Part shown: positions 3,650 through 30,702 of the stretch, piece after piece
Layout of the letters: every line of letters begins with the position of its first letter
Numbering within the stretch: the first letter of the stretch is position 1
Assembly: GCA_018650645.1 (NCBI GenBank)
Contig: JABIFP010000025.1
Coordinates: 7,976-71,975, forward strand
DNA length: 64,000 bases
Origin: Candidatus Magasanikiibacteriota bacterium
GTDB taxonomy: Bacteria > Patescibacteriota > Patescibacteriia > Magasanikbacterales > UBA922
Direction: 5' to 3'
Notes under the pieces: generated by a model
Told to the model about the DNA's origin: nothing
The model's input: only the letters and a program-made list of their open reading frames with translations
Databases searched by the model: none
Position numbers and translations under genes: made by a program

Positions 3650-3678
3650 AAACGGACCAATTGGTCCGTTTTTTTATT
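3650..3678. terminator. bidirectional rho-independent terminator between prfA (+) and the histidine kinase (-)
   Basis: aaaaacggaccaattggtccgttttttt is a perfect 7-bp stem with an AATT loop, flanked by A-run and T-run. Confidence 0.8.
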
Positions 3679-13677: not shown

Positions 13678-14538
13678 ATGCCAAGACCCGAAACGCTCCA
13701 GTCGCTTATCTATGTAGATGGCAGCGATCTATCAGAAACAGCACAGATGATGGATGCCCTTGGATTTGTTGATGGTCAAACAACCAACCCAAGTAATTTT
13801 GTAAAAGCGCTGAAAAAAGAGCTTGGAACAGAAGATATTACCTTTTCTAAGGAAGAACTACTGGCTACATACAAAACTCGCGTAGAAGAAATTTCAAAGG
13901 CGCTGCCAAACGGCTCAGTATCTGTTGAAGTGTATGCAGATAAAGATACAACGGCGGCAGACATGATTACCCAAGGAACAGAAATGTATAGTTGGATTCC
14001 AAACGCACATATTAAGCTCCCCATTACCGCAGCAGGATTGGAAGCGGCAGAACATTTTGTGGCAAACGGCATGCGTGTAAATATGACACTTTGCTTTACC
14101 CAAGAACAAGCTGCAGCCGTATTTGCAGCAACAAAAGGCGCAAAACGCGGTGACGTCTATATTTCTCCTTTTATTGGCAGAGTAAATGATAAAGGGCTGA
14201 ATGGTATGGATATTGTAAGTAACATTGTCCGCATGTATAAACAGGCCGATGATCATGTCATGATTTTAGCAGCGAGTATTAGAGACGCTAACCAGCTGGC
14301 AGAGGCAATAGCAGTAGGATCTGACATTACAACAAGCTATCTGAAAGCAATATTAGAATGGAATGAGCAAGGCATGCCCGTAAATGACCCATCTACCTAT
14401 TCACATCCTGATTTAGCGCCTATTGCGTATAAAGAAATCGATCTATCTGAAGACTGGCGAAGTTATGACATCTCTCACCCAATGACGGATGATGGATTAG
14501 TGCGATTTGCGCAGGACTGGAACGCGCTCATAGCATAA
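13678..14538 (+). CDS. tal: transaldolase
   Basis: A DGQTTNPS motif and a Schiff-base Lys in HIKLPIT, on a TIM-barrel transaldolase/Fsa-family layout. Confidence 0.85.
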   Translation: MPRPETLQSLIYVDGSDLSETAQMMDALGFVDGQTTNPSNFVKALKKELGTEDITFSKEELLATYKTRVEEISKALPNGSVSVEVYADKDTTAADMITQGTEMYSWIPNAHIKLPITAAGLEAAEHFVANGMRVNMTLCFTQEQAAAVFAATKGAKRGDVYISPFIGRVNDKGLNGMDIVSNIVRMYKQADDHVMILAASIRDANQLAEAIAVGSDITTSYLKAILEWNEQGMPVNDPSTYSHPDLAPIAYKEIDLSEDWRSYDISHPMTDDGLVRFAQDWNALIA

Positions 14539-14593
14539 AGGGATACTTCTCTGCAGCTGGCACACGCAAGCTGCATAATAATTTTCTCTTTAT

Positions 14594-15286
14594 ATGAAAA
14601 CCTGGATTGTTTATATTTTTGCGTTTATTGGAGCCGCTCTTATTCTTACATCAATTGGAAATGCGATAAGTATTCAGCTGTTTAATCAAGATGCCGTTCC
14701 CGCGACAGGAGAAGTCGTGGAACTTCTTGAAACAGAAGGCGAAGAATACTACCTGTACGCGCCGGTAATTGAATACACGACCGCTGAAGGAGAACTAATC
14801 ACCTATTCACATAGCAGCTACACATATCCATCAAGCTATGCCATTGGAGAAACGGTACCAATGCTCTATAAAGCCAGTAAGCCGAGTAAAGCTCGTATAG
14901 ATAGTCCGACTGAAGAATGGTTTCTGGTTGGATTCATGTTTTTTATGGGCCTCCTCTTTGCCGTATTTGGATTTGCACTTCCAGTGTATAAACGATACAG
15001 AAAACGAGTTGGACAAAAGCTTAAAGAGACAGGAACTTCTGTGCAAGCAAAAATTATTGGCCTAGAAAAAAATCGAGCCATTGTTATTCAAGGCAAAAGT
15101 CCATTCCGTATTTTGGCGCAATACCACAACACACAAACAAATACTGTTTATGATTATACGAGCGACAACATTTGGTGGGACCCTACCGAATTTGTAAAAG
15201 AAGGAGCGCTTGTAACTGTATATGTAGACAGAAATAATCCAAAAAAACATTCTATGGATCTATCATTTTTACCTAAGCATAGCTAA
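14594..15286 (+). CDS. membrane protein, DUF3592-like (hypothetical)
   Basis: An N-terminal TM and a central TM flank a predicted beta-rich segment. No catalytic motifs. Confidence 0.45.
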   Translation: MKTWIVYIFAFIGAALILTSIGNAISIQLFNQDAVPATGEVVELLETEGEEYYLYAPVIEYTTAEGELITYSHSSYTYPSSYAIGETVPMLYKASKPSKARIDSPTEEWFLVGFMFFMGLLFAVFGFALPVYKRYRKRVGQKLKETGTSVQAKIIGLEKNRAIVIQGKSPFRILAQYHNTQTNTVYDYTSDNIWWDPTEFVKEGALVTVYVDRNNPKKHSMDLSFLPKHS

Positions 15287-15303
15287 TAATTAATAGCACT
15301 CGT

Positions 15304-15558
15304 ATGAAAAAAGTTACTATCTACACTAAACAATCATGTCCGTACTGTGTCCATGCTAAAGAATTGCTTCAAAGCATTGGCGCTGAGTATGAAGAAATTG
15401 ATGTGCTGCAGCACCCAGAGAAGCGAGCTGAGGCGGCAGAAAAATATAACTGGATGAGCGTACCCATGATTCTTATTGGTGAAGAATTTATTGGTGGCTA
15501 CGATGACATGGCAGCACTTCACCAAAAAGGCGAACTTATGCCAAAACTTGCTGACTAA
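15304..15558 (+). CDS. grxC: glutaredoxin
   Basis: An 84-aa thioredoxin fold with a CPYC active site (KQSCPYCVHAK) and the GGYDD motif. Confidence 0.85.
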   Translation: MKKVTIYTKQSCPYCVHAKELLQSIGAEYEEIDVLQHPEKRAEAAEKYNWMSVPMILIGEEFIGGYDDMAALHQKGELMPKLAD

Positions 15559-15566
15559 TTTTGTAT

Positions 15567-16868
15567 ATGATTACCCTATTAACCAAACAATTACACAAAG
15601 TGCAAGCAGCTCACGGTCTTTCTAAAAAGGAACTTGCTGTATCAAAAAAAATATTGCAAAAACATATTGCAGGAGCACTTGCGCGTGACCAACACTTTCA
15701 TAACATTGTAGATGATACTGAAACGGTTCGTATTATTGAGCAGTATGCAGCAAGTGTGAAAGGAAGTTATGACCATGTTGTCCTTTGCGGCATTGGTGGA
15801 TCTGCACTTGGTCCGATTTGTCTGAAAGAAGCGCTCACTCACCTGTACGCTGCTGAGCAAAAAGAGAGAAATCACCCAATACTTCATGTTATTGATAATG
15901 TAGACCCTGCAATGATCGCAGAGGTTGAAAGCATTCTGAATTTCAAGCGAACACTGTTCCTCTTTATTTCAAAATCTGGAAATACTGCAGAAGTACTCAG
16001 CATGTATTTATATTTCAAAGCACGCTGTATTAAAGAAGGAGTTCCCTTTTCTGATCATGCACTCATGGTTACGCATGCAGGAAAAGGAAAACTCTATGAA
16101 CTTGGAACAAAAGACGAGCTACCTATTATTGAACATGGGCCAGTTGGAGGTCGATTTGCGGTGCTCAGCTCTGTTGGACTACTACCAGCTGCGCTCCTTG
16201 GCATAAATATCAAAAAACTTCTCAAGGGAGCAAAGCAAATGCGAGACAAATTCCTCTCAATAGATCCAAAACAAAATCTCCCCTTCCAAATGGCCAACAT
16301 GCAGTATTTGCTCACAAAAAAAGGCAAACATATTCATGTCATGATGCCGTATTCTCAAAAACTTTTCCGATTTGCAGACTGGTACAGACAACTTCTTGCT
16401 GAAAGTATTGGAAAAGAAGTAAATGATAAGGGAAAAAAAGTGAATATTGGAATTACCCCCGTCAAAGCGCTTGGAACAACCGATCAACACTCACAATCAC
16501 AACTCTATAATGAAGGACCGAACAATAAATTCATCATGCTTGTGCATGCAAAGTCACTCCATAAGACTATCCGAATTCCTTCATTATATAAAGGTGACAA
16601 ATCGCTTGCCTACTTGCAAGGAGCAACCTTTAATCAGCTTATTGATGCAGAAAGAGAAGGTACAGCTGATTCGTATACGGCTTATAACAAACCAAACATA
16701 ACTATTCAAATAGATAAAGTAGATGAGGTGCATCTTGGTGGACTGTTCATGCTATTTGAAGGAGCTACCGCATTCCTTGGGGAGCTCTTTGGCATCAATG
16801 CCTATAACCAACCAGGGGTTGAACTTGCAAAAAAACGCACAGTAACGTATTTAAAGAAAAAGAGATAA
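15567..16868 (+). CDS. pgi: glucose-6-phosphate isomerase
   Basis: A SIS-domain motif VLCGIGGSALG, ISKSGNTAE, and full-length PGI architecture. ATG at 15567. Confidence 0.85.
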   Translation: MITLLTKQLHKVQAAHGLSKKELAVSKKILQKHIAGALARDQHFHNIVDDTETVRIIEQYAASVKGSYDHVVLCGIGGSALGPICLKEALTHLYAAEQKERNHPILHVIDNVDPAMIAEVESILNFKRTLFLFISKSGNTAEVLSMYLYFKARCIKEGVPFSDHALMVTHAGKGKLYELGTKDELPIIEHGPVGGRFAVLSSVGLLPAALLGINIKKLLKGAKQMRDKFLSIDPKQNLPFQMANMQYLLTKKGKHIHVMMPYSQKLFRFADWYRQLLAESIGKEVNDKGKKVNIGITPVKALGTTDQHSQSQLYNEGPNNKFIMLVHAKSLHKTIRIPSLYKGDKSLAYLQGATFNQLIDAEREGTADSYTAYNKPNITIQIDKVDEVHLGGLFMLFEGATAFLGELFGINAYNQPGVELAKKRTVTYLKKKR

Positions 16869-16872
16869 GCAT

Positions 16873-18285
16873 ATGCAGCAATCACTATCGCAGTTTGGAA
16901 TGATTGGCCTTGGTGTCATGGGAGCAGCGCTCGCAAAAAATGTAGAGAGCCGCGGGTATCAGGTCAGTGTCTATAACAGAAGCAAAGATAAGCGAGATGC
17001 CTTCATGAAAACTTATGGTGATGGTAATTTTGTATGCACAGAATCGATTGAAAAATTTACAGCTTCACTTGAACGACCCAGAAAATTCATGCTGCTAGTG
17101 CAAGCTGGAAAAGCTGTTGATGCCGTCATTGAATCACTTCTCCCCCATCTAGAAGAAGGAGACATTATTATTGATGGAGGAAATTCTTTTTACAAAGATA
17201 CACAGCGAAGAGAACTCGCTTTAAAAGAAAAAGGTATTCATTTTGTAGGCTGCGGTGTAAGTGGCGGAGAAGAAGGAGCGCTAAAAGGGCCAAGTATCAT
17301 GCCTGGCGGATCGGCTGAATCATGGAAACAAATTCAACCAATTTTAGAAGCAATTGCTGCAAAAGATTTTTCTGGAGGCCCCTGTGTTACCCATGTAGGT
17401 GAAAACGGTGCAGGACATTACGTAAAAATGGTGCACAACGGTATTGAATACGGCATCATGCAACTCATTGCTGAATCCTACGACATTTTGCGAACAGGAT
17501 ACGGCATGCAAGCGTCAGAAATTGCCGATGTGTTTGCTGGATTCACCAAAGGAAAACTCAGTTCATACTTATTTGATATCGCAGTACCAGTACTACGAAA
17601 ACAAGATGACCAAGACGGTAAAACCGGAGCACTTATTGATGCAATTTTAGATCAAGCAAGCAATAAAGGAACCGGTAAATGGACATCCGTTGATGCACTG
17701 GACCGCGGGCAAGCAATTCCTACCATTACGGCAGCTGTGTACGCAAGATACACCTCCACAAATAAAGATGTGCGGACAGCCCTCTCTTCAGTATATCCAA
17801 AATCAGAATATTCACCAGCACTTGATCAAAGCGACATGATAGCAGCGCTTGAAGATGCGCTTTATGCTGGAGTACTCAGCTGTTTTGCGCAAGGATATGA
17901 TCTTATTGTGCAAGTAGCAGAAGCAGAAAAGTGGGATATCGATCTTGCTGAGGTTTCTAGAATATGGGAAGGCGGTTGTATCATTAGAGCAACACTGCTT
18001 TCTGAATTCCAAGAAGGATTCAAGGAATCTTCAGCACACCTGCTGAGTCACTCACACATTGTTGAAAAAATCACTACATCTGTACCACACCTGCGAGCGC
18101 TTATTGCACAAACTGTGCAGCTTGGTATTGCCCTTCCAGCATTTTATAGTGCCCTTGGGTATATCGATGCAATGACGACAGCAAACAGTAGTGCAAACAT
18201 GATTCAAGGACTCCGAGATTATTTTGGAGCACATACATACAAACGCAATGATATGGAGGGAACCTTCCATTCTCATTGGGATTAA
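16873..18285 (+). CDS. gnd: 6-phosphogluconate dehydrogenase, decarboxylating
   Basis: An N-terminal GMIGLGVMG NADP-binding motif, a conserved 6PGD core and C-terminal domain, 470 aa. Confidence 0.95.
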   Translation: MQQSLSQFGMIGLGVMGAALAKNVESRGYQVSVYNRSKDKRDAFMKTYGDGNFVCTESIEKFTASLERPRKFMLLVQAGKAVDAVIESLLPHLEEGDIIIDGGNSFYKDTQRRELALKEKGIHFVGCGVSGGEEGALKGPSIMPGGSAESWKQIQPILEAIAAKDFSGGPCVTHVGENGAGHYVKMVHNGIEYGIMQLIAESYDILRTGYGMQASEIADVFAGFTKGKLSSYLFDIAVPVLRKQDDQDGKTGALIDAILDQASNKGTGKWTSVDALDRGQAIPTITAAVYARYTSTNKDVRTALSSVYPKSEYSPALDQSDMIAALEDALYAGVLSCFAQGYDLIVQVAEAEKWDIDLAEVSRIWEGGCIIRATLLSEFQEGFKESSAHLLSHSHIVEKITTSVPHLRALIAQTVQLGIALPAFYSALGYIDAMTTANSSANMIQGLRDYFGAHTYKRNDMEGTFHSHWD

Positions 18286-18295
18286 TCATATACCT

Positions 18296-19747
18296 ATGGT
18301 AGAAACCATTGAGACCTCATTCATCATTTCCATTTTCGGCGCATCTGGAGATTTGGCAAAGATAAAAATCTTTCCGTCACTTTATGCTCTCGCAAAACAA
18401 AACAGACTGCCCAAAGATTACTTAATGGTTGGTTTTGCGCGTACACAGATGTCGCATGATGAATTCAAAAAAACCGTGCGGCAAGCGGTAAAAAAATATT
18501 CTAAATTGTCAGTCGATGAAACCATTCTTAATAAAATGCTAAAGCATGTATTTTATTTTTCAGGACAATATAGTTCTTTAGAAGATTTTGTATCGTATCG
18601 TCAATTCTTAAAAGATACATTTACTTCTCACTGCGGAGCGCCACTGCGATTACAAAAAATACCGCATATCGCTTATTTTTCCATTCCTCCTGTTGTGTTT
18701 AAGGATGTGGTAAAAAATCTTGGTGAATCAAGAACAAATAAGCATGAAGACCTGCGTTTGGTAATAGAAAAACCATTTGGTGATTGTGAAAAAAGTGCAA
18801 AAGCACTCTTTCACTTTATTTCTCAGCATTTTCACGAAGACCAATTCTACCTCCTGGATCATTATCTTGGAAAAGCTTCCGTCCAAAGTATCTTAAACAT
18901 GCGACAGAGTAATCGTGTACTGAATAATATTATTAGAGGCTCTGAAATAGCAAATATTCAGATTACCGCAGCTGAATCGGTTGGTGTTGGTCACCGAATT
19001 GGGTATTTTGAACAAGTTGGTATTGTAAAAGACATTATCCAATCACATTTATTGCAGGTACTAGCACTGGTAACTATGAATATTCCAAATCATAGAAATG
19101 CAGCGAGTTTGCAAAGAGAAAAAGGAAATATTTTGGAGGCTATTGACTGCCCATGTGATGCCCCAAATGTTGTGTTAGGCCAATACGAGTCTTATAAAAA
19201 GGCCAAAGGTGTGGCACCAAAGAGTAGAACAGAAACGTATGCTGCCGTTCGCCTGTTTCTTGACTCACAGCAATGGTATAACGTGCCTATATATTTGCGC
19301 ACAGGAAAACGCCTGAGTAAAAAACATACGTACGCAGTAATTGAACTTAAAAAATTCCCTTTTCAAGGAAAAGATGAAGCGCCAAATAGAATAGTTATTG
19401 AATTTCACCCAGAACCGCGCATTGGGATTTCACTGATTAATTTTCAGGAAGGTGCGCAGCGCTATCAAACGGTAAGCACCTCAGCATCAATCGCCTGTAA
19501 TATTGAAGGATGTCTTCCTGAACACGGAGAACTCCTCCTTGATGTACTCAAAAAGGAACGTATGCACTTCCTTAGCTTTAACGAGATACTCGCGTCATGG
19601 AAAATTGTAGATCGGATTACGCAAAACATGAAGGAAAAGAAAATTAAGCTCAATATCTATAAAGATGGAAGCCGCGGACCTGAATCGCAACATTCTCTAC
19701 CTAAAAAAGATGGATACACCTGGTTTGATCCAAATGAAATTAGATAA
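18296..19747 (+). CDS. zwf: glucose-6-phosphate 1-dehydrogenase
   Basis: IFGASGDLAKIKIFPSLY NADP motif, an EKPFG motif and a DHYLGK motif. ATG at 18296, in the track ORF frame. Confidence 0.9.
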   Translation: MVETIETSFIISIFGASGDLAKIKIFPSLYALAKQNRLPKDYLMVGFARTQMSHDEFKKTVRQAVKKYSKLSVDETILNKMLKHVFYFSGQYSSLEDFVSYRQFLKDTFTSHCGAPLRLQKIPHIAYFSIPPVVFKDVVKNLGESRTNKHEDLRLVIEKPFGDCEKSAKALFHFISQHFHEDQFYLLDHYLGKASVQSILNMRQSNRVLNNIIRGSEIANIQITAAESVGVGHRIGYFEQVGIVKDIIQSHLLQVLALVTMNIPNHRNAASLQREKGNILEAIDCPCDAPNVVLGQYESYKKAKGVAPKSRTETYAAVRLFLDSQQWYNVPIYLRTGKRLSKKHTYAVIELKKFPFQGKDEAPNRIVIEFHPEPRIGISLINFQEGAQRYQTVSTSASIACNIEGCLPEHGELLLDVLKKERMHFLSFNEILASWKIVDRITQNMKEKKIKLNIYKDGSRGPESQHSLPKKDGYTWFDPNEIR

Positions 19748-19748
19748 T

Positions 19749-20423
19749 ATGACACACGTGCAGCAATTTGAATCAATGGATGAGCTAGTTTCTGCCCTCT
19801 TACCCGCGTTTAAAGCTGATAAGGAACTTCATATAGGTCTTTCGGGTGGAAACTCCCCTGTGGCACTCTACAAAGCTATCGCACAATTTCAGACATCACA
19901 TCAATCACAATTTTTTTATCAGGTTGATGAGAGATACGTACCAGCAGAGAGTGATGAATCAAATCAACGAATGATCCGGGAAACACTTATTGACCCAATC
20001 CGCCATAATTTAGGTGGATTCTTCTCTATAGACACATCCCTTCCGATTAATGAAGCAGTATACAAATATTCACAGGCCATTGAAACGATTCCTAATCAAT
20101 CATTTGATATTATTGTGCTAGGGCTTGGAACTGATGGTCACACAGCATCACTTTTTAGAGGCGATACAACACTTGGTGACTCTAATGCGTTGGTTCGCCA
20201 TACCATTAACCCTACGGCGCCAAACCCTCCAGTAAAAGATCGAATCACCTTAAGCTTGCATACTATTATGCGTGCAAAAAAAATAGTGCTACTGGTCACT
20301 AGTGCAGCTAAATGGCAACTAGTTGAATCCATGTTAAACGACCAGCCCAATACCACCACCCTACCAATCCACGCACTCCTTCCTCATCCAAATCTAGAGA
20401 TTATGTATGCCAAAACCGTATAG
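19749..20423 (+). CDS. pgl: 6-phosphogluconolactonase
   Basis: GLSGGNSP, LGLGTDGHTASLF and a 1-nt gap after the zwf stop. ATG at 19749. Confidence 0.8.
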   Translation: MTHVQQFESMDELVSALLPAFKADKELHIGLSGGNSPVALYKAIAQFQTSHQSQFFYQVDERYVPAESDESNQRMIRETLIDPIRHNLGGFFSIDTSLPINEAVYKYSQAIETIPNQSFDIIVLGLGTDGHTASLFRGDTTLGDSNALVRHTINPTAPNPPVKDRITLSLHTIMRAKKIVLLVTSAAKWQLVESMLNDQPNTTTLPIHALLPHPNLEIMYAKTV

Positions 20424-21059: not shown

Positions 21060-21091
21060 CAAAAAAATCGACTGCATAAGTCGATTTTTTA
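21060..21091. terminator. bidirectional rho-independent terminator
   Basis: aaaaaaatcgact gcata agtcgatttttt lies between the HAD gene (+) and the pilus-gene operon (-). Confidence 0.75.
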
Positions 21092-21490
21092 TAGTGATGA
21101 AACGATTTGCCAGTTTGTAATGCTCACACCACTGCTTACATCCGCAGTAATTTGTAACCGCCTATATGTACTGTTTACATTTCCTTCCACATTAAGCTGC
21201 CTACTATTGCCACCAAGATCCGTCACAACCACTGAGCACGTTCCTCCGTTTAATGAAACATTTTCTGTCCCAGTATAGCCAGTATCGAGTCTGAGTTGCT
21301 CCATTCCCTCTTCCGCACACGCATCAGCAAGAGCAATAAGTGTTCCTTCATCATTCCAAGCCCCCGTCATGCGGGAAGCATCAATACTGAGTAGCGCAAG
21401 CGAAACCGTTACAGCAACACCAACACCCGCAAGAGCAAATACTGCCAGCAGTGTCATGTATCCTTTTTTATTTAACGCTTTAACACGCAT
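21089..21490 (-). CDS. type IV pilus minor pilin / PilX-like protein (putative)
   Basis: The N-terminus MRVKALNKKGYMTLLAVFALAGVGVAV resembles the PilX_N/pseudopilin hydrophobic segment. It is the last gene of the pilus operon. The start ATG at 21490 is 1 nt after the upstream stop. Confidence 0.45.
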   Translation of the reverse strand: MRVKALNKKGYMTLLAVFALAGVGVAVTVSLALLSIDASRMTGAWNDEGTLIALADACAEEGMEQLRLDTGYTGTENVSLNGGTCSVVVTDLGGNSRQLNVEGNVNSTYRRLQITADVSSGVSITNWQIVSSL

Positions 21491-21491
21491 A

Positions 21492-21986
21492 TTATCTGTG
21501 TGTAATGGTTGAAGTAAAATCTTGCGTTGCAAACTGCTGTGGTCCATCTTCTATTGATTCCCTCTCTAACGTAAATGTCATTTCTGTAGAGCTGCTTCCC
21601 CAATCTGAAATGTCTGTGGCAATAAATGAAGTAGCAATGAGTCTTCCTGTTAGTAGCGGTACCGTGTTCCCAGCAACTTCCTTTTGTACAGAATTCCCAA
21701 CAAGCGAAAATGTTGTTGTCACATTGTCATACGAGACAACTTGCAGTACAGATGTTGCCACTCCGCCTGTAGGCACCGTAATTACTGATGCTCCATGAAC
21801 TGCATTACGCATTTCGTTCATTAAATTTCCTCCCTGAAAAGATACATCACTCACCACCTCGTGTTTTCCTCTGGACTGTAAAATCTGGATGAACATACTA
21901 CTAAGCGCAAGCAAAAATACTCCAGAAATTCCAATATAGAGAATGAGTTCTACCAATGTAAATCCTTTTTTTGAAGTAGTATTCAT
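21492..21986 (-). CDS. type IV pilin-like protein (prepilin N-terminal methylation motif)
   Basis: KKGFTLVELILYIGI is a class III signal with Glu at +5. Confidence 0.8.
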   Translation of the reverse strand: MNTTSKKGFTLVELILYIGISGVFLLALSSMFIQILQSRGKHEVVSDVSFQGGNLMNEMRNAVHGASVITVPTGGVATSVLQVVSYDNVTTTFSLVGNSVQKEVAGNTVPLLTGRLIATSFIATDISDWGSSSTEMTFTLERESIEDGPQQFATQDFTSTITHR

Positions 21987-21987
21987 A

Positions 21988-24921
21988 CTATTGGTAATTA
22001 ATCGTCACATCTTGAAGGACCGGTGTGTGATCTCCATCTGAACTTAATGTGGCACGGTATTGCAGCCACTGCGATTGGTTCAAATCGGTATCAAGTAATT
22101 GCAAGGCATTGTCACTAAACGTTGTTGCAGCTCCTCCACTTCCATACCATGCAGACCAAACTCCAGGGCTTCCACCACTATCGTCAGCAGTTCGTAACTC
22201 AATTTCTATGTCACAGGCTGGTGCGCAACTCGGAATCGATTCGTTCCATGAAATCATCTGCACAGCAGCATTTTTTCCCATATCAAATGCAGAACTTGTT
22301 AGTGTTCCAGATACTTCATATCCACCAGCTACCTGCTCTCCATTTCCCCACTCAATAGACACACTATCTAGCTGTACTTGTACCGTTCCATCACTTTCCA
22401 AATTTGCGCGGAACAAAAATTGCCCACTAGAGGTTGGGAATGATGAAAAATTATCGTGAATATCTGTGGCTATTGAATAATCAGACGCCCCAGCTGCGGC
22501 CCAGGCTGCACCAGTCCAGTAATACCACGATGTACCATTATTATCTGATACCTGATAGTAAATTTCACCTGTATTTTTTGTTGCTACTTCTGTAAAGCCA
22601 ACATAGTTTCCTAATCCGCTGACAGCTAAAAATGATGACGGGGTAATTGTTGGTACCGTATCAGGATATGACGCAGCTCCAGCAGAAACGCCAATTGTAG
22701 TCACATACCCATCATTCCCCGTTCCACTATATACAATGGCAATCATACTATTAGAAAGAATATATGCCATTGGATCAATTCCCTGCGTAGCATCAAACTC
22801 CTCTGAATCGATAAATGCCGCAGGTAGTGTTCCGTTATCTTCAATTGTGAGTAGTGCCAAAATACCATTATTAGTAGCATCCTCATACACTAAGGCATAA
22901 GTGGTTCCATCAAACGGGTACAGCTTCATCTCATATGCGCCACTCGTCTCAAACTCCCAAGAATCTACAATCGCATTAGTAATATCTCCCGCGGCATCAA
23001 TTTCAACTGTAGTTATAGTTCCATCATTTCCGGCCCCTTCATATGAAATTGCATAAATATCGCCACTAATTGGAATAAGATTAGGCGTATTAGCTGAGCT
23101 TGTATCAAATTCTAATGAATCGATAATACTATTCGTAATATTTCCACTTGTATCGATATCAACGGTTACTAGCCAGCCATCACTTCCAGCCCCTTGATAC
23201 GCAATTGCATATATGTCTCCTGAAATTGCTGTAATTGATGGATATTTTCCACTTGCGGTATCATATTCATATGAATCTACCTCTGTGATGGCTCCCGCAC
23301 CATTAACCGAAAATGTTTGTATAAATCCATCGCTCTTGTTTCCTTCATAAACGACTGCAAATACTCCATTGGCCAGCTCAATAAGAGAAGAAAATCGTCC
23401 ACTCTTATTATCAAATTCTGTTGAATCAATCACTGCCCCAATATTCCCAGCAGCATCAATATCTACGGTGACTGCATACCCGTCATTTTTATCTCCCGAA
23501 TAGGTGATCAAGTAGTTGTCTCCGGAAACATGTATTATCTCTACCTCTTTTCCCTGCTTTGTATCAAATTCATAAGTATCAATCACAGCACCACCAATAT
23601 CTCCCGCAGCGTCAACTGATACTGTTTTAATAAAACCATCGTTTCCTGATCCTGTGTATGCAATCGCAAAAATGTCATTTCCCAATGACAAAACATATGG
23701 CATGGTGGTGTTACTTGTATCAAATTCAAATGTTTCTGTTACTGCACCATTGATATCTGAGCCGCCACCACCTGCTGATACGAGTTGTGCCTGACCACCA
23801 GTCACTTCAATATCCGCTGCATTAAAGGTGTAACTTGTTGATGCAGAAAATGGCCACTGATACTGATTTCCACATCGAATACTGATCTCATCAAGAAGCA
23901 CATCATGCGTTCCGTCACTGGAAAGGAATGCCTGAAAAGAAATCCGCCCACTTGAAGTTGTAAATGACCCGATATTTGTATTTATATCTGCCGCTGTATT
24001 ATAGTCTGCTCCGCCAGCGGCTCCCCAAGCAGCTCCCGTCCAATATTCCCAGTTGGATCCATTATCACTTGAAATTTGATAATAAATTTCTCCGGCATTT
24101 TTTGTAGCAGTTTCAGAAAACTGCGTCCACTCATCTACATCTCCAGTTACAATAAAATCTACTAATGGTGCAATTGCAGGCTCATCATTTGGATAATTTG
24201 TGTCCCCTGGCCCAGCAGGAATAAGTACAGCTTCCCCTCCAGTTATTTCAATATCATCACTATCAAATGAGTAGCTTGTTGAAGCCGTAAAGCTCCATGA
24301 TTTTGTTCCACACTGTTCATTTAGTCGATTTAATTGCAATTGCCCTCCGGTAGTTACATCTACATCTCCTGAATCGCTATCATACGCTGCCGTGTCAGCC
24401 CAAATTGCTTGCCCGTCGCCGCTAGACCAATCTGTTTGCGTCCAATTGTCTGACTGCCAATTTGTGAGTAGTACTGATCTGTTTACTGCAAGCGATCTTC
24501 CTGCAATTGTCGTTCTTGTCACCGCAATCGTAGCCATGTGTGATGACATATCAACCGTTCCCGCAGGGCAGGTCACAATCACATCGGTTCCATCTCTACA
24601 TACATCAGTAAACGTAATTGTCCTTGTAAATTCTCCGATTGTTTCACTTGTTCCCTCTCCGCTTAGCGTCCACGCTCCTGTTGAAGAAGTGACCGCAGAC
24701 TGAGAATACGTAAATTCATTTACCGCCCTATCACGAATTGCTCTTACAGCCTCAACGCCTTCTTGAGCGAGATGTTCAGCAGTGATTCTATGCTTAGCCA
24801 CAATACTCGATTCATGCGCAAGGCTAATTGTGCTTATAAACATAAGCGCAAAGATAGCAAAAAGAGCCACAGCGAGTATGATCTCCATTATGCTAAATCC
24901 TTCCTTGCGCAACCTTTGCAT
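21988..24921 (-). CDS. giant pilin-like protein (977 aa): prepilin-type N-terminus, ~7-blade beta-propeller repeat region and three Asp-box-containing modules. Putative pilus-tip adhesin.
   Basis: N-terminus KEGFSIMEIILAVALFAIFAL. About seven tandem ~50-aa repeats with the pattern (I/V)DSxEFDT..G.....ISGD.YAI.Y.G.GNDG...TV.ID..G. Three ~80-aa modules with S-x-D-x-G-x-x-W (e.g. ISSDNGSNWEYWTGAAW). Confidence 0.85.
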   Translation of the reverse strand: MQRLRKEGFSIMEIILAVALFAIFALMFISTISLAHESSIVAKHRITAEHLAQEGVEAVRAIRDRAVNEFTYSQSAVTSSTGAWTLSGEGTSETIGEFTRTITFTDVCRDGTDVIVTCPAGTVDMSSHMATIAVTRTTIAGRSLAVNRSVLLTNWQSDNWTQTDWSSGDGQAIWADTAAYDSDSGDVDVTTGGQLQLNRLNEQCGTKSWSFTASTSYSFDSDDIEITGGEAVLIPAGPGDTNYPNDEPAIAPLVDFIVTGDVDEWTQFSETATKNAGEIYYQISSDNGSNWEYWTGAAWGAAGGADYNTAADINTNIGSFTTSSGRISFQAFLSSDGTHDVLLDEISIRCGNQYQWPFSASTSYTFNAADIEVTGGQAQLVSAGGGGSDINGAVTETFEFDTSNTTMPYVLSLGNDIFAIAYTGSGNDGFIKTVSVDAAGDIGGAVIDTYEFDTKQGKEVEIIHVSGDNYLITYSGDKNDGYAVTVDIDAAGNIGAVIDSTEFDNKSGRFSSLIELANGVFAVVYEGNKSDGFIQTFSVNGAGAITEVDSYEYDTASGKYPSITAISGDIYAIAYQGAGSDGWLVTVDIDTSGNITNSIIDSLEFDTSSANTPNLIPISGDIYAISYEGAGNDGTITTVEIDAAGDITNAIVDSWEFETSGAYEMKLYPFDGTTYALVYEDATNNGILALLTIEDNGTLPAAFIDSEEFDATQGIDPMAYILSNSMIAIVYSGTGNDGYVTTIGVSAGAASYPDTVPTITPSSFLAVSGLGNYVGFTEVATKNTGEIYYQVSDNNGTSWYYWTGAAWAAAGASDYSIATDIHDNFSSFPTSSGQFLFRANLESDGTVQVQLDSVSIEWGNGEQVAGGYEVSGTLTSSAFDMGKNAAVQMISWNESIPSCAPACDIEIELRTADDSGGSPGVWSAWYGSGGAATTFSDNALQLLDTDLNQSQWLQYRATLSSDGDHTPVLQDVTINYQ
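22700..23790 (-). repeat. coding tandem repeats (~7 x ~150 nt) encoding propeller-blade-like units inside the giant pilin gene
   Basis: Periodicity seen in the translated protein (aa ~380-740). The repeats have diverged at nucleotide level. Confidence 0.55.
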
Positions 24922-24922
24922 A

Positions 24923-25354
24923 TTACTGGTAGCTTATCGTTGAACTTGATATTAATACGGTTTGCGGATCATGTCCTGCTTTGGTTATACGAATTGTTCC
25001 ACTTACTGAAGACGCTCCTGTACTTTTACTAAAAATCACGTCTGACTCTCCGGTAATAATGAGCTGTTCATCTAATATAATAATTTCATCATATGAAGCA
25101 TCTCGTAATGCGTAATCATTTCCTCTAAAAAGTGTCATATTTGTATCAGCCATATGCACCCCCCAATCGGTATCGTATTTCATGGTGTGTGCGTATACCT
25201 TTGCAAGCCGCAATGTAGAAACAACATGTTGCCGCGCTACAATAGTAGAGCTTTTTTCTTGTATTGATGTAAAAAGAGGTAACGTAAATGCCGAAACAAG
25301 GGCAATGATAGCAATCACCAGAATGAGTTCTACTAATGTAAACCCTTTTTTCAT
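24923..25354 (-). CDS. type IV pilin-like protein (prepilin N-terminal motif)
   Basis: KKGFTLVELILVIAIIALVSA. It ends 1 nt before the start of the giant pilin-like gene. Confidence 0.8.
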   Translation of the reverse strand: MKKGFTLVELILVIAIIALVSAFTLPLFTSIQEKSSTIVARQHVVSTLRLAKVYAHTMKYDTDWGVHMADTNMTLFRGNDYALRDASYDEIIILDEQLIITGESDVIFSKSTGASSVSGTIRITKAGHDPQTVLISSSTISYQ

Positions 25355-25366
25355 ATGTACCCGGTA

Positions 25367-26617
25367 TTACCCAACACTTCCAACCAGTGTATAGATTGGG
25401 AGAATGATTCCAATCGCTAACCCCGCAACAATAAGTGAAACAAAGAGAAGTAATAACGGTTCAAGTACAACCGAAATATTTTTTGCAGAGACTTCTGTTC
25501 TTTCTTCATACCGCTGACCAATTTGTACCAAAATAGAAGATAATTTTCCGGTTCGTTCACCCGTAACAATAAGCTGCTGCACTGCGCCAGGAATAAGAAA
25601 GGATGATTTCTTTTTGTTTTCTGCAAAGGCATCTGAAAATGACTGTCCTCTTCCTATTTGCATCTCTAAATCGGCATATAGCCTTCCGTATTGCCGTACA
25701 AGTGTGGCTTCAGAGAGTGATTTAAGTGCTTGCAAAATTGGTAACCCTGCACCGAGCAGCGTTCCCAAAATAAATCCAAATCGAGCGAGTTCTACTTCTT
25801 GAATCAATTTTTTTAGTAGCGGTGTATGTAAAATGATCCACTGTCCCATGAATTTTGTTTTTCTGCTCAGGAAAAGTACATAAACAGTTGTAATAATCGA
25901 AGCGACAATAGTTGGGATGAGCCAGTGACCGTACGCTTTTACCACCATACCTATCCACATGAGTACGCGAGTAATCCATGGTAAATCAACATCTAAAGAA
26001 ACAAACAAGTTGGTAATTTTAGGAAGAATGAACCATGTTAATCCAAGACCAATGATTGATGCCAGAGACAATACCAATACAGGATACATCATGGCACTAC
26101 GGAGCCTATCTTTAAATGCTCGTTCCTTTTCTTGCTGCTGCAATACAATAATTAAATTCTCTCCGAGGCGTCCTGATTGCTCCCCCACATCAATGAGCGT
26201 AATGACATGATCTTTAAAGAGCTTCGTTTTCCTCAGCGCTTCAGTCAAAGAAGACCCATCCTGAATATCATCTCTCATTTGCATCAGCAAGGCCTTCATA
26301 GAAGCCCCTTTTAGCTCAGAATGGACCGCTTCAAGTGCGGCAACAACATCCATTCCAGAAGAAAGTAGCAGTGCTAGTTGATCAATAACAAAATCTCTTT
26401 CTTTTCCAACAAAAAGGTACCCAAACCGAGAATGAAAAGATTGCTTTTCAGCCTTTGGTGCAGGTTCTTTTTTTGCGCGAGGTGCCGGAGAGGGTGCAGT
26501 CTTTTCTTTTTTTGGTTTAGAAACCTTTTTTGCGGCAGGCTTCTTTTTTTCTTGCGTATGTGCAAGTACCTCTGCTGCCTCATGCGCATTTGTTGTTTTT
26601 TTCTTTGCAGGAGGCAT
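25367..26617 (-). CDS. pilC: type IV pilus assembly platform protein PilC (GspF family) with a K/P/A-rich N-terminal extension
   Basis: Two GspF-like repeats with three TM segments. The N-terminal ~60 aa is low-complexity (PAKKKTTNAHEAAE...KKEPAPKAEK). Confidence 0.9.
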   Translation of the reverse strand: MPPAKKKTTNAHEAAEVLAHTQEKKKPAAKKVSKPKKEKTAPSPAPRAKKEPAPKAEKQSFHSRFGYLFVGKERDFVIDQLALLLSSGMDVVAALEAVHSELKGASMKALLMQMRDDIQDGSSLTEALRKTKLFKDHVITLIDVGEQSGRLGENLIIVLQQQEKERAFKDRLRSAMMYPVLVLSLASIIGLGLTWFILPKITNLFVSLDVDLPWITRVLMWIGMVVKAYGHWLIPTIVASIITTVYVLFLSRKTKFMGQWIILHTPLLKKLIQEVELARFGFILGTLLGAGLPILQALKSLSEATLVRQYGRLYADLEMQIGRGQSFSDAFAENKKKSSFLIPGAVQQLIVTGERTGKLSSILVQIGQRYEERTEVSAKNISVVLEPLLLLFVSLIVAGLAIGIILPIYTLVGSVG

Positions 26618-26620
26618 AGA

Positions 26621-28300
26621 TTATGATTTTTTCTTTTTACTTTTTGTTCGAACTGGCTTCACAGGTGGGGTAGCTATACGCATAAGTTCTTGCAAGGTGG
26701 TGACACCCTGCGTTACTTTTGAAAGACCATCTTCAAACAGTGTATGCGCACCCTCTTTCATTGCAAGTGCCCAAATTTCTTGTGCTGAAGGATTCGTCAT
26801 AACGAGTTCCCTCATCGCAGATGTCATTGAAATGAATTCAAAAATCGCAACTCGCCCTTTATAACCTGTTCCCCCGCAATTACCACAACCAGTTCCATGA
26901 TAAAGTGTTATTTTCTTTTTTCCGAGTAGCGGCTTTACATTAGCTGGAATTTGTTTTACTGCTTGAGCGGCAGGAATCGATGTTCTACAACTTTCGCAAA
27001 TCTTTCTTACCAGTCGCTGCGCCATAATCAATTCAAGAGTGGAAGCAAGTAAAAATGGTTCTGCTCCCATATCAAGAAGACGCGGAATGGCCGTTGCTGC
27101 ATCGTTTGCATGGAATGTAGAGAACAAAAGATGACCCGTAAGTGCCGCATTCACTGCAATTTCTACTGTTTCTGTATCACGAATTTCTCCTACTAAAATC
27201 ACATCCGGATCCTGCCTAACAATTGATCTGAGTCCTTTAGAAAACGTAATCCCCTTTTCTTCATTAACCTGAATCTGATTAAGCCCAGAAATGCGATACT
27301 CAACAGGATCTTCAATAGTTGTGATGTTTACATCTGGGTTATTTAAAATGCGCAACAGTGAATACAGTGTTGTTGATTTTCCAGACCCCGTTGGCCCCAC
27401 AACAAGCACCATTCCAAATGGTTTTTTAGAAGCGGCCATGAGCAGTTCCTGATCATGATCATCTAATCCCAAATCTCCTAACCCGAATCCTTCAATATAA
27501 CTAGAGAGTAAACGAATAACAATCTTTTCTCCTGAAATTACTGGCGCAATAGAGACACGCATATCAATATGCACGCGCTCGTTTTTAAATCTAATTGCTC
27601 CATCTTGCGTAGCAAAGTGTTCATCAATTCTAAGATGCGCCATGACTTTAATCAGGTTCACCATGTGCTGATAATTCACTGTCGGAATTCTTCCTGCTTC
27701 TTGCAACACCCCATCAACCCTGAAACGAACAATCGCTTCGTCTTCATGTGGTTCAAAGTGAATGTCAGATGATTTATGCACTAAAGCATCTTCAAAAATG
27801 GCATCAATAATCGTTGGTGCAACGTGTTTTTCTTTTTCTAAAATTTTCTGAAAGCGCGTATTCAGTGTTTGCCTATACTGATTGAGTACTTTATCAATAT
27901 CTTCAGTAAGACCATATGCCACAATCGCTTTTTTCTTCTTTGCTAAAGATTTTGTAAGCGTTTTCAGTGATGCATTTTTAGGCGTATCAGTTGCAAATAC
28001 AATCTCCTTGTCTGTTTCTTTATACGCAATCAAGCGATGCTTTTTTGCTGAAGCAGCAGGAACAAGTGCCCGTAAATCGGCACCAGGCATGTTTGAATTG
28101 ATGTCTGCATAGGTTAGCTTAAACGATTCAGCAAGTGCCTGACCAATCAAATCAGCTGACACTTCCCCACTTTCTTTCAGCATGGCTAACACGGTCTTTT
28201 TACTTTTCTTTGCTTTCGCTTGTGCCGCCTTAACATCAGAAGCATCAACATACGCTCCATCGATGAGCGCGGTTAATATATTTGCTTCGCTGACAGGCAT
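26621..28300 (-). CDS. pilB: type IV pilus assembly ATPase PilB (GspE family)
   Basis: Walker A GPTGSGKST, Asp/His boxes, and a tetracysteine CESC...CGNCGGTGYKGR. Confidence 0.95.
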   Translation of the reverse strand: MPVSEANILTALIDGAYVDASDVKAAQAKAKKSKKTVLAMLKESGEVSADLIGQALAESFKLTYADINSNMPGADLRALVPAASAKKHRLIAYKETDKEIVFATDTPKNASLKTLTKSLAKKKKAIVAYGLTEDIDKVLNQYRQTLNTRFQKILEKEKHVAPTIIDAIFEDALVHKSSDIHFEPHEDEAIVRFRVDGVLQEAGRIPTVNYQHMVNLIKVMAHLRIDEHFATQDGAIRFKNERVHIDMRVSIAPVISGEKIVIRLLSSYIEGFGLGDLGLDDHDQELLMAASKKPFGMVLVVGPTGSGKSTTLYSLLRILNNPDVNITTIEDPVEYRISGLNQIQVNEEKGITFSKGLRSIVRQDPDVILVGEIRDTETVEIAVNAALTGHLLFSTFHANDAATAIPRLLDMGAEPFLLASTLELIMAQRLVRKICESCRTSIPAAQAVKQIPANVKPLLGKKKITLYHGTGCGNCGGTGYKGRVAIFEFISMTSAMRELVMTNPSAQEIWALAMKEGAHTLFEDGLSKVTQGVTTLQELMRIATPPVKPVRTKSKKKKS

Positions 28301-28314
28301 AGCGGTTGGTTAGA

Positions 28315-28686
28315 CTATTTCTTAAGTGCTTTTTCTACATGTACGATTACTTCCGTAATTGGCGTGTTAGATTTTACAAAATAATCTACAGCTCCCAATT
28401 TTTTACACTTATCTTGATCTTCTGTTTGGCTCAAATTTGTAGACACAATAACGGGTGTTTTGTCACCACGTTTTTGTTTTTCTTCTAGTACGCCAAATCC
28501 ATCTACTTTCGGCATCATTAAATCAAGCAATACTAAATCGAATTTTCCATTTTTTAAATATACCAAAGCTTCTTCTCCGTCGTATGCATTCTCTACTGCA
28601 TACCCAGCTTTTGATAGCTTCAGCGCGAGCGCTTTTGCCATTGGTTTTTCGTCTTCAGCAATAAGGATTTTCTTTTTTGCGGCCAT
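28315..28686 (-). CDS. single-domain response regulator (CheY/PilH-like receiver) leading the pilus operon
   Basis: ILIAEDE, LVLLDLMMPKVDG, VIVSTNLS and DYFVKS receiver signatures in a 123-aa product. Confidence 0.85.
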   Translation of the reverse strand: MAAKKKILIAEDEKPMAKALALKLSKAGYAVENAYDGEEALVYLKNGKFDLVLLDLMMPKVDGFGVLEEKQKRGDKTPVIVSTNLSQTEDQDKCKKLGAVDYFVKSNTPITEVIVHVEKALKK

Positions 28687-29825: not shown

Positions 29826-29973
29826 ACACGAGGTTCTTTTTGAAATATACGATGACTCAAGTATACCTTGGCTGGGCAAAAAAAAGAACTCGCGCATATT
29901 GACAGAGAGCAAAAGCTATGCTACGTTGCGTGAAGAACACTAACTGCCGCAACGCGGCTAAGGGAGGACGGCC

Positions 29974-30579
29974 ATGGGAAGGCCAAAGAAGAAGGATGCG
30001 TGGTGCAAGACCCGGTACGGGCGGATTGGCCGCCTGATGGCCGATCCGGAAACTACTCATGACCAGAGACTGTTCCTGTTGCAGCTCGAAGAGTACCTGT
30101 CGATGAACGTCGATCAGGCACTCGATATCCTCGAGTGGCGCGGTGAAGCGCACGTCATCACCTCGCGACTTCACGGCATGGTCGACGGCATCGACCCGAT
30201 CGCTGCCAGGCATGGGCTGAAGCTGCCGTTCACTGCGGAGGGCGAGGGCGTGAACACCACCTGGACGTGGATCGAGTGGCAGATGATCACGCCGATGGAC
30301 CTGTTCTGGCGGAGAACGGGGAAAGGGAACGCCCCTCTACTCCTTCAGCTACAGGAGGGAGGCAACCCCGAACAAATTGCGTGCGCGCTCTACAAATATC
30401 CCAAAGGTACCAAAATGGTGGGTTGGACACCGACTGATCTGCGCGAAGCTGCCGCAGATGCAATCGAGGCACTTTTGCAGACGGCCGAACGTGCGGGTCT
30501 CGGCAACGTCATTCAGACATCGACTGCCGACGGCGAACCCTACTACCGCTGGGTCGGCCCCCAGATCCCGCCCGCCTAG
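29974..30579 (+). CDS. hypothetical protein encoded in a GC-rich island
   Basis: A 201-aa ORF in a ~60% GC segment. A strong RBS taagggaggacggccATG precedes it. No recognisable domain. Confidence 0.5.
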   Translation: MGRPKKKDAWCKTRYGRIGRLMADPETTHDQRLFLLQLEEYLSMNVDQALDILEWRGEAHVITSRLHGMVDGIDPIAARHGLKLPFTAEGEGVNTTWTWIEWQMITPMDLFWRRTGKGNAPLLLQLQEGGNPEQIACALYKYPKGTKMVGWTPTDLREAAADAIEALLQTAERAGLGNVIQTSTADGEPYYRWVGPQIPPA

Positions 30580-30702
30580 CCCACACTCAAAGGGCGCGAC
30601 AAGAGACTACCGAGTAGCCCGGTTCCTGGCTACAACCGATTGCGGGGCGCACGTCGCCCCCAATCACTTTACTACGGCATATACTGCCTTTTTATTTTAC
30701 AA

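Follow-up and report, generated by a model that had tools for sequence, protein, structure and literature searches.

The 977-residue protein encoded on the minus strand at positions 21988–24921 of a 64,000-nucleotide stretch of a Candidatus Magasanikiibacteriota genome (contig JABIFP010000025.1; this whole stretch is referred to below as the window) is probably a modular type IV minor pilin that would act as a pilus-tip adhesin. We put the probability of this model, taken as a whole, at about 0.6. To judge from the sequence, the N-terminal carrier module is a GspI/PilV/ComGE-type member of an H-I-J-K minor-pilin set encoded right behind the PilB and PilC assembly genes, and it is followed by a long array of predicted jelly-roll modules and a seven-bladed propeller. 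We infer the processing of the protein by a prepilin peptidase, its location at the pilus tip, its adhesin function and its glycan specificity from the position of the gene, the predicted fold and the analogy with described systems; a glycan as the ligand is a tentative proposal, to which we would give somewhat less than even odds.

The original prediction, made from the DNA letters alone, placed a candidate pilus-tip adhesin of 977 residues at this site. The open reading frame (ORF) is indeed present (977 codons), on the minus strand, which had been left unstated, and its product is a pilin-anchored protein of a Patescibacteria (candidate phyla radiation, CPR) genome, encoded in a pilB–pilC minor-pilin operon. 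The identical 977-residue sequence is deposited at NCBI as MBT4153749.1 under the label 'hypothetical protein', from a Candidatus Magasanikbacteria metagenome-assembled genome (MAG).

Architecture of the protein

The mature protein would comprise 969 residues with a mass of 102.5 kDa. Its isoelectric point (pI) of 4.05 and its high content of Gly, Ala, Ser and Thr (41%) fit the expectation for an extracellular protein. Domain parsing gives the module order N-A-B7-A-A, where N stands for the pilin and neck, A for a jelly roll and B7 for the seven-bladed propeller. The protein thus combines an N-terminal pilin module with modules from outside type IV pilus biogenesis, which makes it a modular pilin in the sense of Raynaud et al. 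2021 (PMC8179133). The structural statements below are based on a full-length AlphaFold2 model built from a 22-sequence alignment (mean predicted local distance difference test score, pLDDT, 85.5) and on a second model of residues 748–977 alone (pLDDT 91.2). The internal repeats were measured by self-BLAST of fragments, self-BLAST of the whole protein having shown the diagonal only. The modules are distributed as follows (HMM, hidden Markov model).

24898–24921, minus strand: prepilin leader peptide, residues 1–8 (MQRLRKEG), predicted to be cut after Gly8; read from the sequence, Gly8 being invariant in 18 homologues
24457–24897, minus strand: pilin module, residues 9–155, GspI/PilV/ComGE-like; AlphaFold2 model, NCBIfam matches and the Cys108/Cys118 pair
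24196–24456, minus strand: conserved neck, residues 156–242; QTDWSGGxGQ motif and the first 'CG...WxF...YxFD..IExTGGxAxL' strand set
23878–24195, minus strand: jelly-roll module A1, residues 243–348, with SSDNGSNW and YWTGAAW; HMM E 6e-41, 55–61% identical to A2
23761–23877, minus strand: second linker strand set, residues 349–387 (CGNQYQWPFSASTSYTFNAADIEVTGGQAQL), a repeat of the neck motif found by self-BLAST
22672–23760, minus strand: predicted seven-bladed beta-propeller, residues 388–750, very acidic; seven repeats of 50–52 residues
22342–22671, minus strand: jelly-roll module A2, residues 751–860, with the Asp-box variant SDNNGTSW and YWTGAAW
21991–22341, minus strand: C-terminal jelly-roll module A3, residues 861–977, diverged and with a degenerate Asp-box; HMM E 2.5e-42 (C-terminal model) and 4e-25 (A model)

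The pilin module and its signal

The protein begins with MQRLRKEG/FSIMEIILAVALFAIFALMFI (also written MQRLRKEG/FSIMEIILAVALFAIFALMFISTISLA), with a basic leader of eight residues closed by a glycine, after which come Phe+1, Glu+5 and a hydrophobic stretch. Type IV pilins are recognised by just these features, a short basic leader ending in Gly(-1) before a hydrophobic residue +1 and a glutamate at +5 (here E13). The class III prepilin N-terminus that the original prediction had read is thereby seen in all its elements, and it passes no curated motif cut-off. The conservation of the cleavage site, which had been suggested as a check, holds well: G8 and E13 are invariant in all 18 diverse homologous N-termini that were aligned, with F, Q, Y, A, V, M or L at position +1 and, in most of the relatives, the reading R-G-Q-S-L-L-E-V-I at the junction of the leader and alpha1. 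Glu+5 serves the packing of pilin subunits against one another and not mere anchoring. A profile of the family matches the leader and alpha1 of the solved pilins Geopilin, PilA and MshA at E 0.004–0.02, and in the AlphaFold2 prediction a 52-residue helix (11–62) is followed by beta strands (77–153) in the manner of the pilin 'lollipop', with Cys108 and Cys118 forming an invariant pair in the family alignment.

The NCBIfam models that respond to this module are of one kind. The protein itself scores against PilV at E 4e-4 (20.9 bits vs a cut-off of 52.2) and against ComGE at E 4e-3, both under the equivalog cut-offs; among 18 members of the family ComGE was matched in 12, PilV in 6, GspI in 5 and XpsI in 3, again always at sub-equivalog level. 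All four are models of 'I'-class minor pilins, and they recur as the best matches throughout the family. The general prepilin model TIGR02532 is matched at E <= 0.01 by 6 of the 18, and several homologues carry precomputed PF07963 matches; some homologues are labelled prepilin or PilV by NCBI and JGI.

One public gene call for this locus (P0001 vs P0235) begins at Met12 and yields 966 residues, so that the part encoded at 24889–24921 of the window, and with it the leader, Gly-1 and Phe+1, is lost. Since such a start removes the prepilin signal, start calls of that sort can conceal pilins from motif-based censuses.

The pilus operon

On the minus strand the operon runs from a response regulator through PilB and PilC to four pilin-like genes of H-, I-, J- and K-type, the 977-residue protein being the I member. 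The genes around it are these.

28315–28686, minus strand: response regulator with a single domain, first gene of the operon (PF00072, E 8e-24)
26621–28300, minus strand: PilB/GspE assembly ATPase (PF00437, E 4e-121, plus an MshEN domain)
25367–26617, minus strand: PilC/GspF platform protein (PF00482, E 9e-47)
24923–25354, minus strand: upstream pilin, 143 residues (MKKG/FTLVE), GspH/ComGD-like (PF07963 27 bits, above the cut-off; ComGD E 1.3e-7; GspH E 1.8e-7)
21492–21986, minus strand: downstream pilin, 164 residues (TSKKG/FTLVE), in the GspJ/ComGF/PilW slot (PF07963 24 bits, above the cut-off; weak ComGF and PpdC-like matches)
21089–21490, minus strand: fourth pilin-like gene, 133 residues from Met20 (MRVKALNKKG/YMTLLAV), with a TAA-T-ATG junction and no Glu+5

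The original prediction had the gene between two pilin genes and downstream of pilB–pilC, and so it lies, with the flanking pilins at 24923–25354 and 21492–21986. It begins one base past the stop codon of the upstream pilin and stops one base short of the next start, and all three junctions among the four pilin-like genes have the form TAA/TAG-T-ATG. Encoded together with filament assembly genes, as type IV pilins are, it has PilB, PilC and three other pilin-like genes as its company, and this synteny is conserved: the order response regulator-PilB-PilC-H-I-J-K recurs around two distant homologues. There PilM and further pilins come next; the operon in the window stops after the fourth pilin-like gene. 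The 'I' assignment agrees with the place of the gene as the second of an H-I-J-K set whose K-type member has no Glu+5.

The Walker A motif was matched once in the window, whose sole T2SSE ATPase is PilB. The upstream pilin also matches the N-termini of pilins in the PDB (E 2.5e-6), and it could be the major subunit instead of an H-type one. For the fourth gene the longest-ORF start, which gives 152 residues (21089–21547), was rejected with its 56-nt overlap with the preceding gene; the Met20 start (21490) was chosen because it restores the TAA-T-ATG junction and because genes of 126–130 residues stand at this place in the homologous loci. The product has no Pfam or PDB match, and its missing Glu+5 suggests a GspK/PilX-like protein. 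No PilY1 gene is present in the pilus operon. A response regulator stands directly before pilB also in a distant homologous locus (L002:4235–4609), and its presence ahead of pilB in two loci suggests a conserved regulatory coupling of the pilus operon.

The seven-bladed propeller

The approximately seven repeats of about 50 residues that had been aligned by eye are exactly seven, of 50–52 residues each (396–447, 448–498, 499–548, 549–600, 601–652, 653–704 and 705–755, with a D-S-x-E-F-D anchor). Fragment self-BLAST and an HMM of the blade exclude an artefact of that alignment: the former reveals a period of about 51 residues over positions 390–750 with off-diagonal E-values down to 1e-26, and the latter finds each of the seven copies at E 1e-13 to 1e-25. 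Pairwise identity between the blades is 20–58%. AlphaFold2 predicts the fold that had been proposed, arranging 28 strands as seven sets of four over residues 387–747, mostly with pLDDT >90. The propeller carries 56 acidic (D+E) vs 9 basic (K+R) residues. In the 27 blade-bearing homologues besides our protein the number of blades is 7 in 17 cases, 14 in 7 and 4–6 in 3.

When the model was compared with the PDB by Foldseek, the top ranks were taken by the seven-bladed Photorhabdus lectins PLL2, PHL and PLL (TM scores 0.70–0.76, about 10% identity), and the Micromonospora sialidase, which combines a propeller with a family 32 carbohydrate-binding module (CBM32), came next. As modelled, the propeller fold is secure and its resemblance to lectins is not specific, for the reason given below where the reading is weighed. 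Single-sequence and profile searches of the PDB gave no sequence relative of the propeller. Neither Pfam, NCBIfam nor PHROGs contained a significant family for it, for the jelly rolls or for ten propeller relatives, and when the full protein and the profiles of the jelly rolls and of the propeller were searched against PDB sequences, only a sialidase B Asp-box (E 0.07) and ricin B (E 0.08) came back.

Three known kinds of propeller were considered and rejected. A comparison with the sialidase/BNR families, which the original prediction had advised, came out negative: PF02012 reaches 13.3 bits vs the required 27, and the Asp-boxes (at 284 and 792) lie outside the blades. The RCC1 model PF00415 is unmatched in our protein and in ten propeller relatives, and for a PilY1-type propeller there is no match to PF05567/IPR008707 even at E <= 1, in a protein that has a pilin N-terminus. 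As far as sequence models reach, the propeller family is neither RCC1, PilY1-type nor BNR, and neither Pfam nor the PDB contains it.

The jelly-roll modules, neck and linker

Three modules of about 80 residues, each with an Asp-box and a YWTGAAW motif, had been described. Three homologous modules do exist, at 243–348, 752–856 and 886–974 according to fragment BLAST and HMM, but they measure about 105–115 residues and the motifs occur only in the first two: the Asp-box S-x-[DN]-x-G-x-x-W is SSDNGSNW at 284 and SDNNGTSW at 792, YWTGAAW is found at 293 and 801, and the third module is devoid of either. In fragment self-BLAST the segment 243–348 recurs at 751–856 (55–61% identity, E 1e-29) and more weakly at 906–974 (E 3e-7). 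The third module, A3, has diverged from the others (28% identity) and contains a stretched loop, ADDSGGSPGVW; a module of its type is the final domain in nearly all homologues, as a conserved C-terminal cap.

In the model of residues 748–977 two beta-sandwiches are predicted, in agreement with a jelly-roll fold, and in fold the modules are similar to CBM32, discoidin and galactose-binding domains. Pfam, including F5_F8_type_C and the CBM families, gave no significant match for 36 instances of the module; two distant homologues carry a precomputed Reelin_subrepeat-B match. With a profile made from the same 36 instances, the sole contact in the PDB was with the Asp-box of sialidase B (E 0.07). 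Because the Asp-boxes sit in jelly rolls and not in blades, the idea that they mark a sialidase-like protein was rejected.

The neck, in which Q162, W165, G168 and W174 are invariant in the alignment, is modelled as short beta strands (pLDDT 57–85), and self-BLAST pairs residues 179–242 with 331–389 (41% identity, E 4e-13). The motif 'C-G-x(3,4)-W-x-F-x(5)-Y-x-[FY]-x(4,5)-I-E-[IV]-T-G-G-x-A-x-L' precedes A1 (residues 156–242) and appears again before the propeller (residues 349–387). The same motif opens several non-pilin homologues (P0093–P0095); in these surface proteins it could play the part of a conserved connector or of a strand donor.

Distribution of the family and variety of its cargo

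A word-indexed search recovered 95 relatives of the 977-residue protein, and the neck motif Q[TS][DN]WxGG[SAD]GQ led to 230 related loci in GTDB species representatives, the best match being 46% identical. Lineage titles were taken for the best 80 of these 230 loci, and almost all of them name Patescibacteria lineages: MAGs of Magasanik-, Uhr-, Falkow-, Buchanan-, Dojka-, Kerfeld-, Berkel-, Komeili-, Ryan-, Sung-, Parcu- and Paceibacteria, Saccharibacteria and Microgenomates. A few look mislabelled. Many contigs with clear relatives (L004, L012, L017, L023–L026 and other loci) bear the title 'uncultured Gammaproteobacteria bacterium' in third-party MAG assemblies; on contigs with Patescibacteria-type pilins such titles are probably taxonomic mislabels.

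By domain parsing the 95 relatives follow the grammar pilin/neck-[cargo-A]n-A, where the cargo is one or two propellers or an unassigned domain of 165–450 residues. The precomputed Pfam matches on the unassigned cargo are mostly of lectin type and comprise Laminin_G_3/LamG, H_lectin, pentaxin, clostridial toxin receptor-binding, DUF1080 and LVIVD.

The comparative search for the repeat unit that the original prediction had called for was made with the propeller alone against 1.84 billion cluster representatives and yielded 1,726 relatives (622 at E <= 1e-30), counted as clusters at 50% identity. They include giant proteins of 2,000–3,800 residues (an Omnitrophota 'DUF2341' protein is one) and numerous proteins of about 380 residues that stand alone. 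The family also rides on other pilin-like carriers, namely P0113 (517 residues, L086:7001–8554), which has no Glu+5, is K/PilX-like and stands third after PilB–PilC in another operon, and P0118, a 943-residue Glu+5 pilin that also contains LamG-like sequence. Its presence on several pilin-like carriers marks the propeller as a recurrent type IV pilus cargo.

The stand-alone proteins, of which there are dozens, consist of the propeller only, start with 'MAEGDIGAVIDTLEFD', have no signal peptide and end in a '...HLLLMGIG' tail. At L083:6001–7137 and L085:6001–7143 (P0219 and P0206) they lie among co-directional small ORFs with conserved neighbours, in the order 121 residues, about 200–290 residues, propeller, 113–114, 56 and 145 residues, and on one of the contigs a ParB gene is found upstream. 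No Pfam or PHROG matches were obtained. The stand-alone propeller may be a virus- or plasmid-borne receptor-binding module.

Other features of the window

A PAS/HAMP histidine kinase of 817 residues is encoded at 3677–6130. Adjoining the pilus operon and converging on it from the plus strand (13678–20423) is a pentose-phosphate cluster in the order transaldolase, DUF3592 protein, glucose-6-phosphate isomerase, 6-phosphogluconate dehydrogenase, glucose-6-phosphate dehydrogenase and 6-phosphogluconolactonase. Between a DUF3048 gene and the gene of ribosomal protein L25, at 29900–30650, an island of about 700 nt has 58–62% GC vs 43% in the window. It holds an ORF of 201 residues (29974–30579, plus strand) with no Pfam match. 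A structured RNA was not found in the island, there being no Rfam match at E <= 1 and folding z-scores of only -1.1 and -1.9; a foreign high-GC protein gene is the more likely explanation.

Comparison with known systems

The closest analogue is found in Nanosynbacter lyticus TM7x, two large minor pilins of which were published in 2024 (PMC11623550): PilX1 bears a jelly-roll domain, and PilX2 a seven-bladed propeller similar to the PLL lectins. PilX2 is required for host binding, which rhamnose blocks, and its fold resembles the PLL/CV39L lectins (PMC11623550). Like PilX2, our protein is a minor pilin of Patescibacteria encoded in a type IV pilus locus and bearing a seven-bladed propeller whose top fold matches are the same PLL/CV39L-type lectins; with PilX1 it shares the CBM-like jelly roll, and with both the proposed role of a tip adhesin, which in the case of the PilX proteins goes with host binding sensitive to added sugars. 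The differences, drawn from the published description of PilX1 and PilX2, are three. The PilX2 propeller is made of RCC1 repeats, whereas ours matches neither RCC1 nor any other Pfam family; PilX1 and PilX2 have no predicted PilD signal, whereas the present family keeps Gly-1 and Glu+5 and looks I-type; and here the jelly rolls and the propeller are joined in one chain of five modules.

Modular pilins as such are well documented. A census of 2021 listed >1,200 of them, many from CPR phyla including Magasanikbacteria, with LamG (PF13385) as a common cargo (PMC8179133), and PilB (vWA) and PilC (ConA-like lectin) of Streptococcus sanguinis are modular pilin adhesins (PMC8179133, PMC9934059). The likeness lies in a small pilin module that displays a binding module, in the monoderm setting and in the LamG cargo, which the homologues of our protein also have. 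Most of the described modular pilins are, however, bimodular with a cargo recognisable by InterPro, and ours is multi-module; with its sub-threshold pilin motif and a cargo unseen by Pfam and NCBIfam, it would be missed by a census of this kind.

The Gram-negative type IVa tip adhesins PilY1/PilC likewise hold a seven-bladed propeller at the tip, together with FimU-PilVWX (H-I-J-K), and function in adhesion; PilY1, though, is a non-pilin that docks non-covalently, whereas the propeller here is covalently fused to a PilV-type subunit. The PLL-family lectins (PLL, PLL2 and PHL of Photorhabdus, CV39L of Chromobacterium and BP39L of Burkholderia) have the same seven-bladed propeller of about 350 residues with repeats of about 50 residues, and in both cases the repetitive blades suggest multivalent sites, but at 5–11% identity there is no sequence-level relationship. 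As compared with GspI, PilV and ComGE, finally, the protein has the second slot in the H-I-J-K set behind the ATPase and platform genes and weak but consistent best HMM matches; it differs in its length (977 residues vs about 100–140 in the canonical proteins) and in its score (20.9 vs 52.2 bits).

It follows from PMC8179133 and PMC11623550 that modular minor pilins acting as adhesins are already known, also in propeller- and jelly-roll-bearing forms in Patescibacteria, and the earlier suggestion that this architecture may be undescribed was overstated; what survives of it is that the exact family and the propeller type are unannotated. New here are the I-type carrier with intact Gly-1 and Glu+5, the five-module chain, the grammar of cargo and jelly roll, and a propeller family outside Pfam and the PDB. 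The protein is a good experimental candidate and exposes a gap in annotation, and it is not a conceptual surprise.

Alternative explanations

Several observations weigh against a pilus-tip adhesin. The general pilin models stay below their curated cut-offs, PF07963 reaching 14.2 bits vs 21.2 and TIGR02532 13.2 bits on the whole protein and 15.9 bits on the N-terminal 175 residues vs 16.3, and the scores are far under the PilV and GspI equivalog cut-offs. PilD (the prepilin peptidase), PilT, PilM and a clear major pilin were not found in the 64-kb window among the ORFs scanned, which were a part of those in the window, and no further G-F-x-x-x-E ORF was found among them. There is no relative by sequence with a solved structure or a Pfam model. 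In the structure search WD40 proteins, integrin alpha, YncE and the enzyme CylK scored about as well as the lectins, and glycan binding is therefore not specifically indicated.

Some of these facts would suit a pilin-like surface protein that is never polymerised, in which the helix, cleaved or not, is an anchor only and the modules serve as a short-range adhesin, a wall-associated binder or a part of a short pseudopilus. Motif scores below threshold and the lack of a major pilin or PilM beside the operon in the window point this way, a cargo of 102 kDa is bulky for a filament subunit, and PilX1 and PilX2 of TM7x are likewise without predicted PilD signals (PMC11623550). On the other hand, Gly-1 and Glu+5 are invariant, and the latter matters in packing and not in mere anchoring; in several lineages the gene fills the I position of an H-I-J-K set that is translationally coupled and follows PilB–PilC immediately; moreover, monoderm-like CPR cells would have no outer-membrane secretin to limit the size of the cargo. 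We hold this explanation to be improbable. The role of a ComGE-like subunit in a competence-type pilus, with the cargo devoted to DNA capture and uptake or to another non-adhesive task, appears to us still more remote, although gene order and best HMM matches mirror comGA-GB-(GC)-GD-GE-GF-GG (the upstream pilin matches ComGD at E 1.3e-7, and 12/18 members of the family match ComGE) and Patescibacteria are naturally competent (PMC10633639). A cargo of pI 4.05 with a propeller of 56 D+E vs 9 K+R is unfavourable to DNA binding, that of the homologues is of lectin type (LamG, H-lectin, pentraxin), and TM7x mutants in the T4P-2 pilins retained wild-type competence (PMC11623550).

The layout of propeller and CBM32 also recalls the Micromonospora sialidase, and Asp-box motifs are classically tied to sialidases, so that one might think of a pilus-borne enzyme, a propeller of glycosidase, lyase or lactonase type with carbohydrate-binding modules, that degrades or remodels the cell wall of the partner. 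Here, however, the Asp-boxes are in the jelly rolls instead of the propeller blades, no enzyme family HMM matches, identity to every enzyme match is only 5–12%, and the repetitive blades fit a multivalent binder more readily than an enzyme with one asymmetric active site. Among the explanations weighed this one receives the least credence from us, and the pilus-tip adhesin is the reading with which we proceed.

Proposed mechanism and significance

In type II secretion systems and type IVa pili the GspI-J-K and PilV-W-X proteins prime assembly and end up at the tip of the filament. By analogy, a prepilin peptidase would cut the protein after Gly8 (Gly8/Phe9), and the hydrophobic alpha1 of the I-type module would join the three H-, J- and K-type neighbours in a priming complex, which would come to lie at the tip of the pilus assembled by PilB and PilC. 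The remaining approximately 820 residues, that is, the neck, a jelly roll, the seven-bladed propeller and two more jelly rolls, would project from the tip; the lack of an outer-membrane secretin in monoderm-like cells would remove a limit on the size of such a cargo. The modules may attach to a ligand carried by a second cell or a surface, the likeliest being a repeated cell-wall glycan, which the repetitive blades and the CBM-like jelly rolls could engage multivalently, and the pilus would thereby serve as a tether between the ultrasmall cell and its partner. An epibiotic Saccharibacterium cannot do without its type IV pili (PMC10633639).

Beyond a few oral Saccharibacteria, little is known of how uncultivated ultrasmall Patescibacteria locate their partners and stay attached to them, and this locus offers a concrete, expressible candidate adhesin from Magasanikbacteria, a lineage of groundwater or sediment type. 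It also points to two blind spots in annotation: neither the propeller family, with its approximately 1,700 clusters at 50% identity, nor the module of the jelly rolls has a Pfam model or a solved structure, and a gene call from Met12 deletes the prepilin signal. One and the same pilin scaffold carries exchangeable lectin-like cargo in at least 230 species-level genomes. A broader proposal, which we regard as rather doubtful, is that the I-type minor pilin with its QTDWSGGxGQ neck and 'pilin-[cargo-jelly roll]n-jelly roll' grammar is an undescribed host-recognition scaffold widespread in Patescibacteria, in which exchangeable cassettes (the unmodelled propeller, LamG, H-lectin and others) set partner specificity. 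The propeller would then be a shared, mobile receptor-binding module, since it also occurs alone, on contigs that look like those of viruses or plasmids, and within giant surface proteins of Omnitrophota. If it is true that the cargo sets the partner range, the family would be usable to predict host–symbiont pairings from metagenomes.

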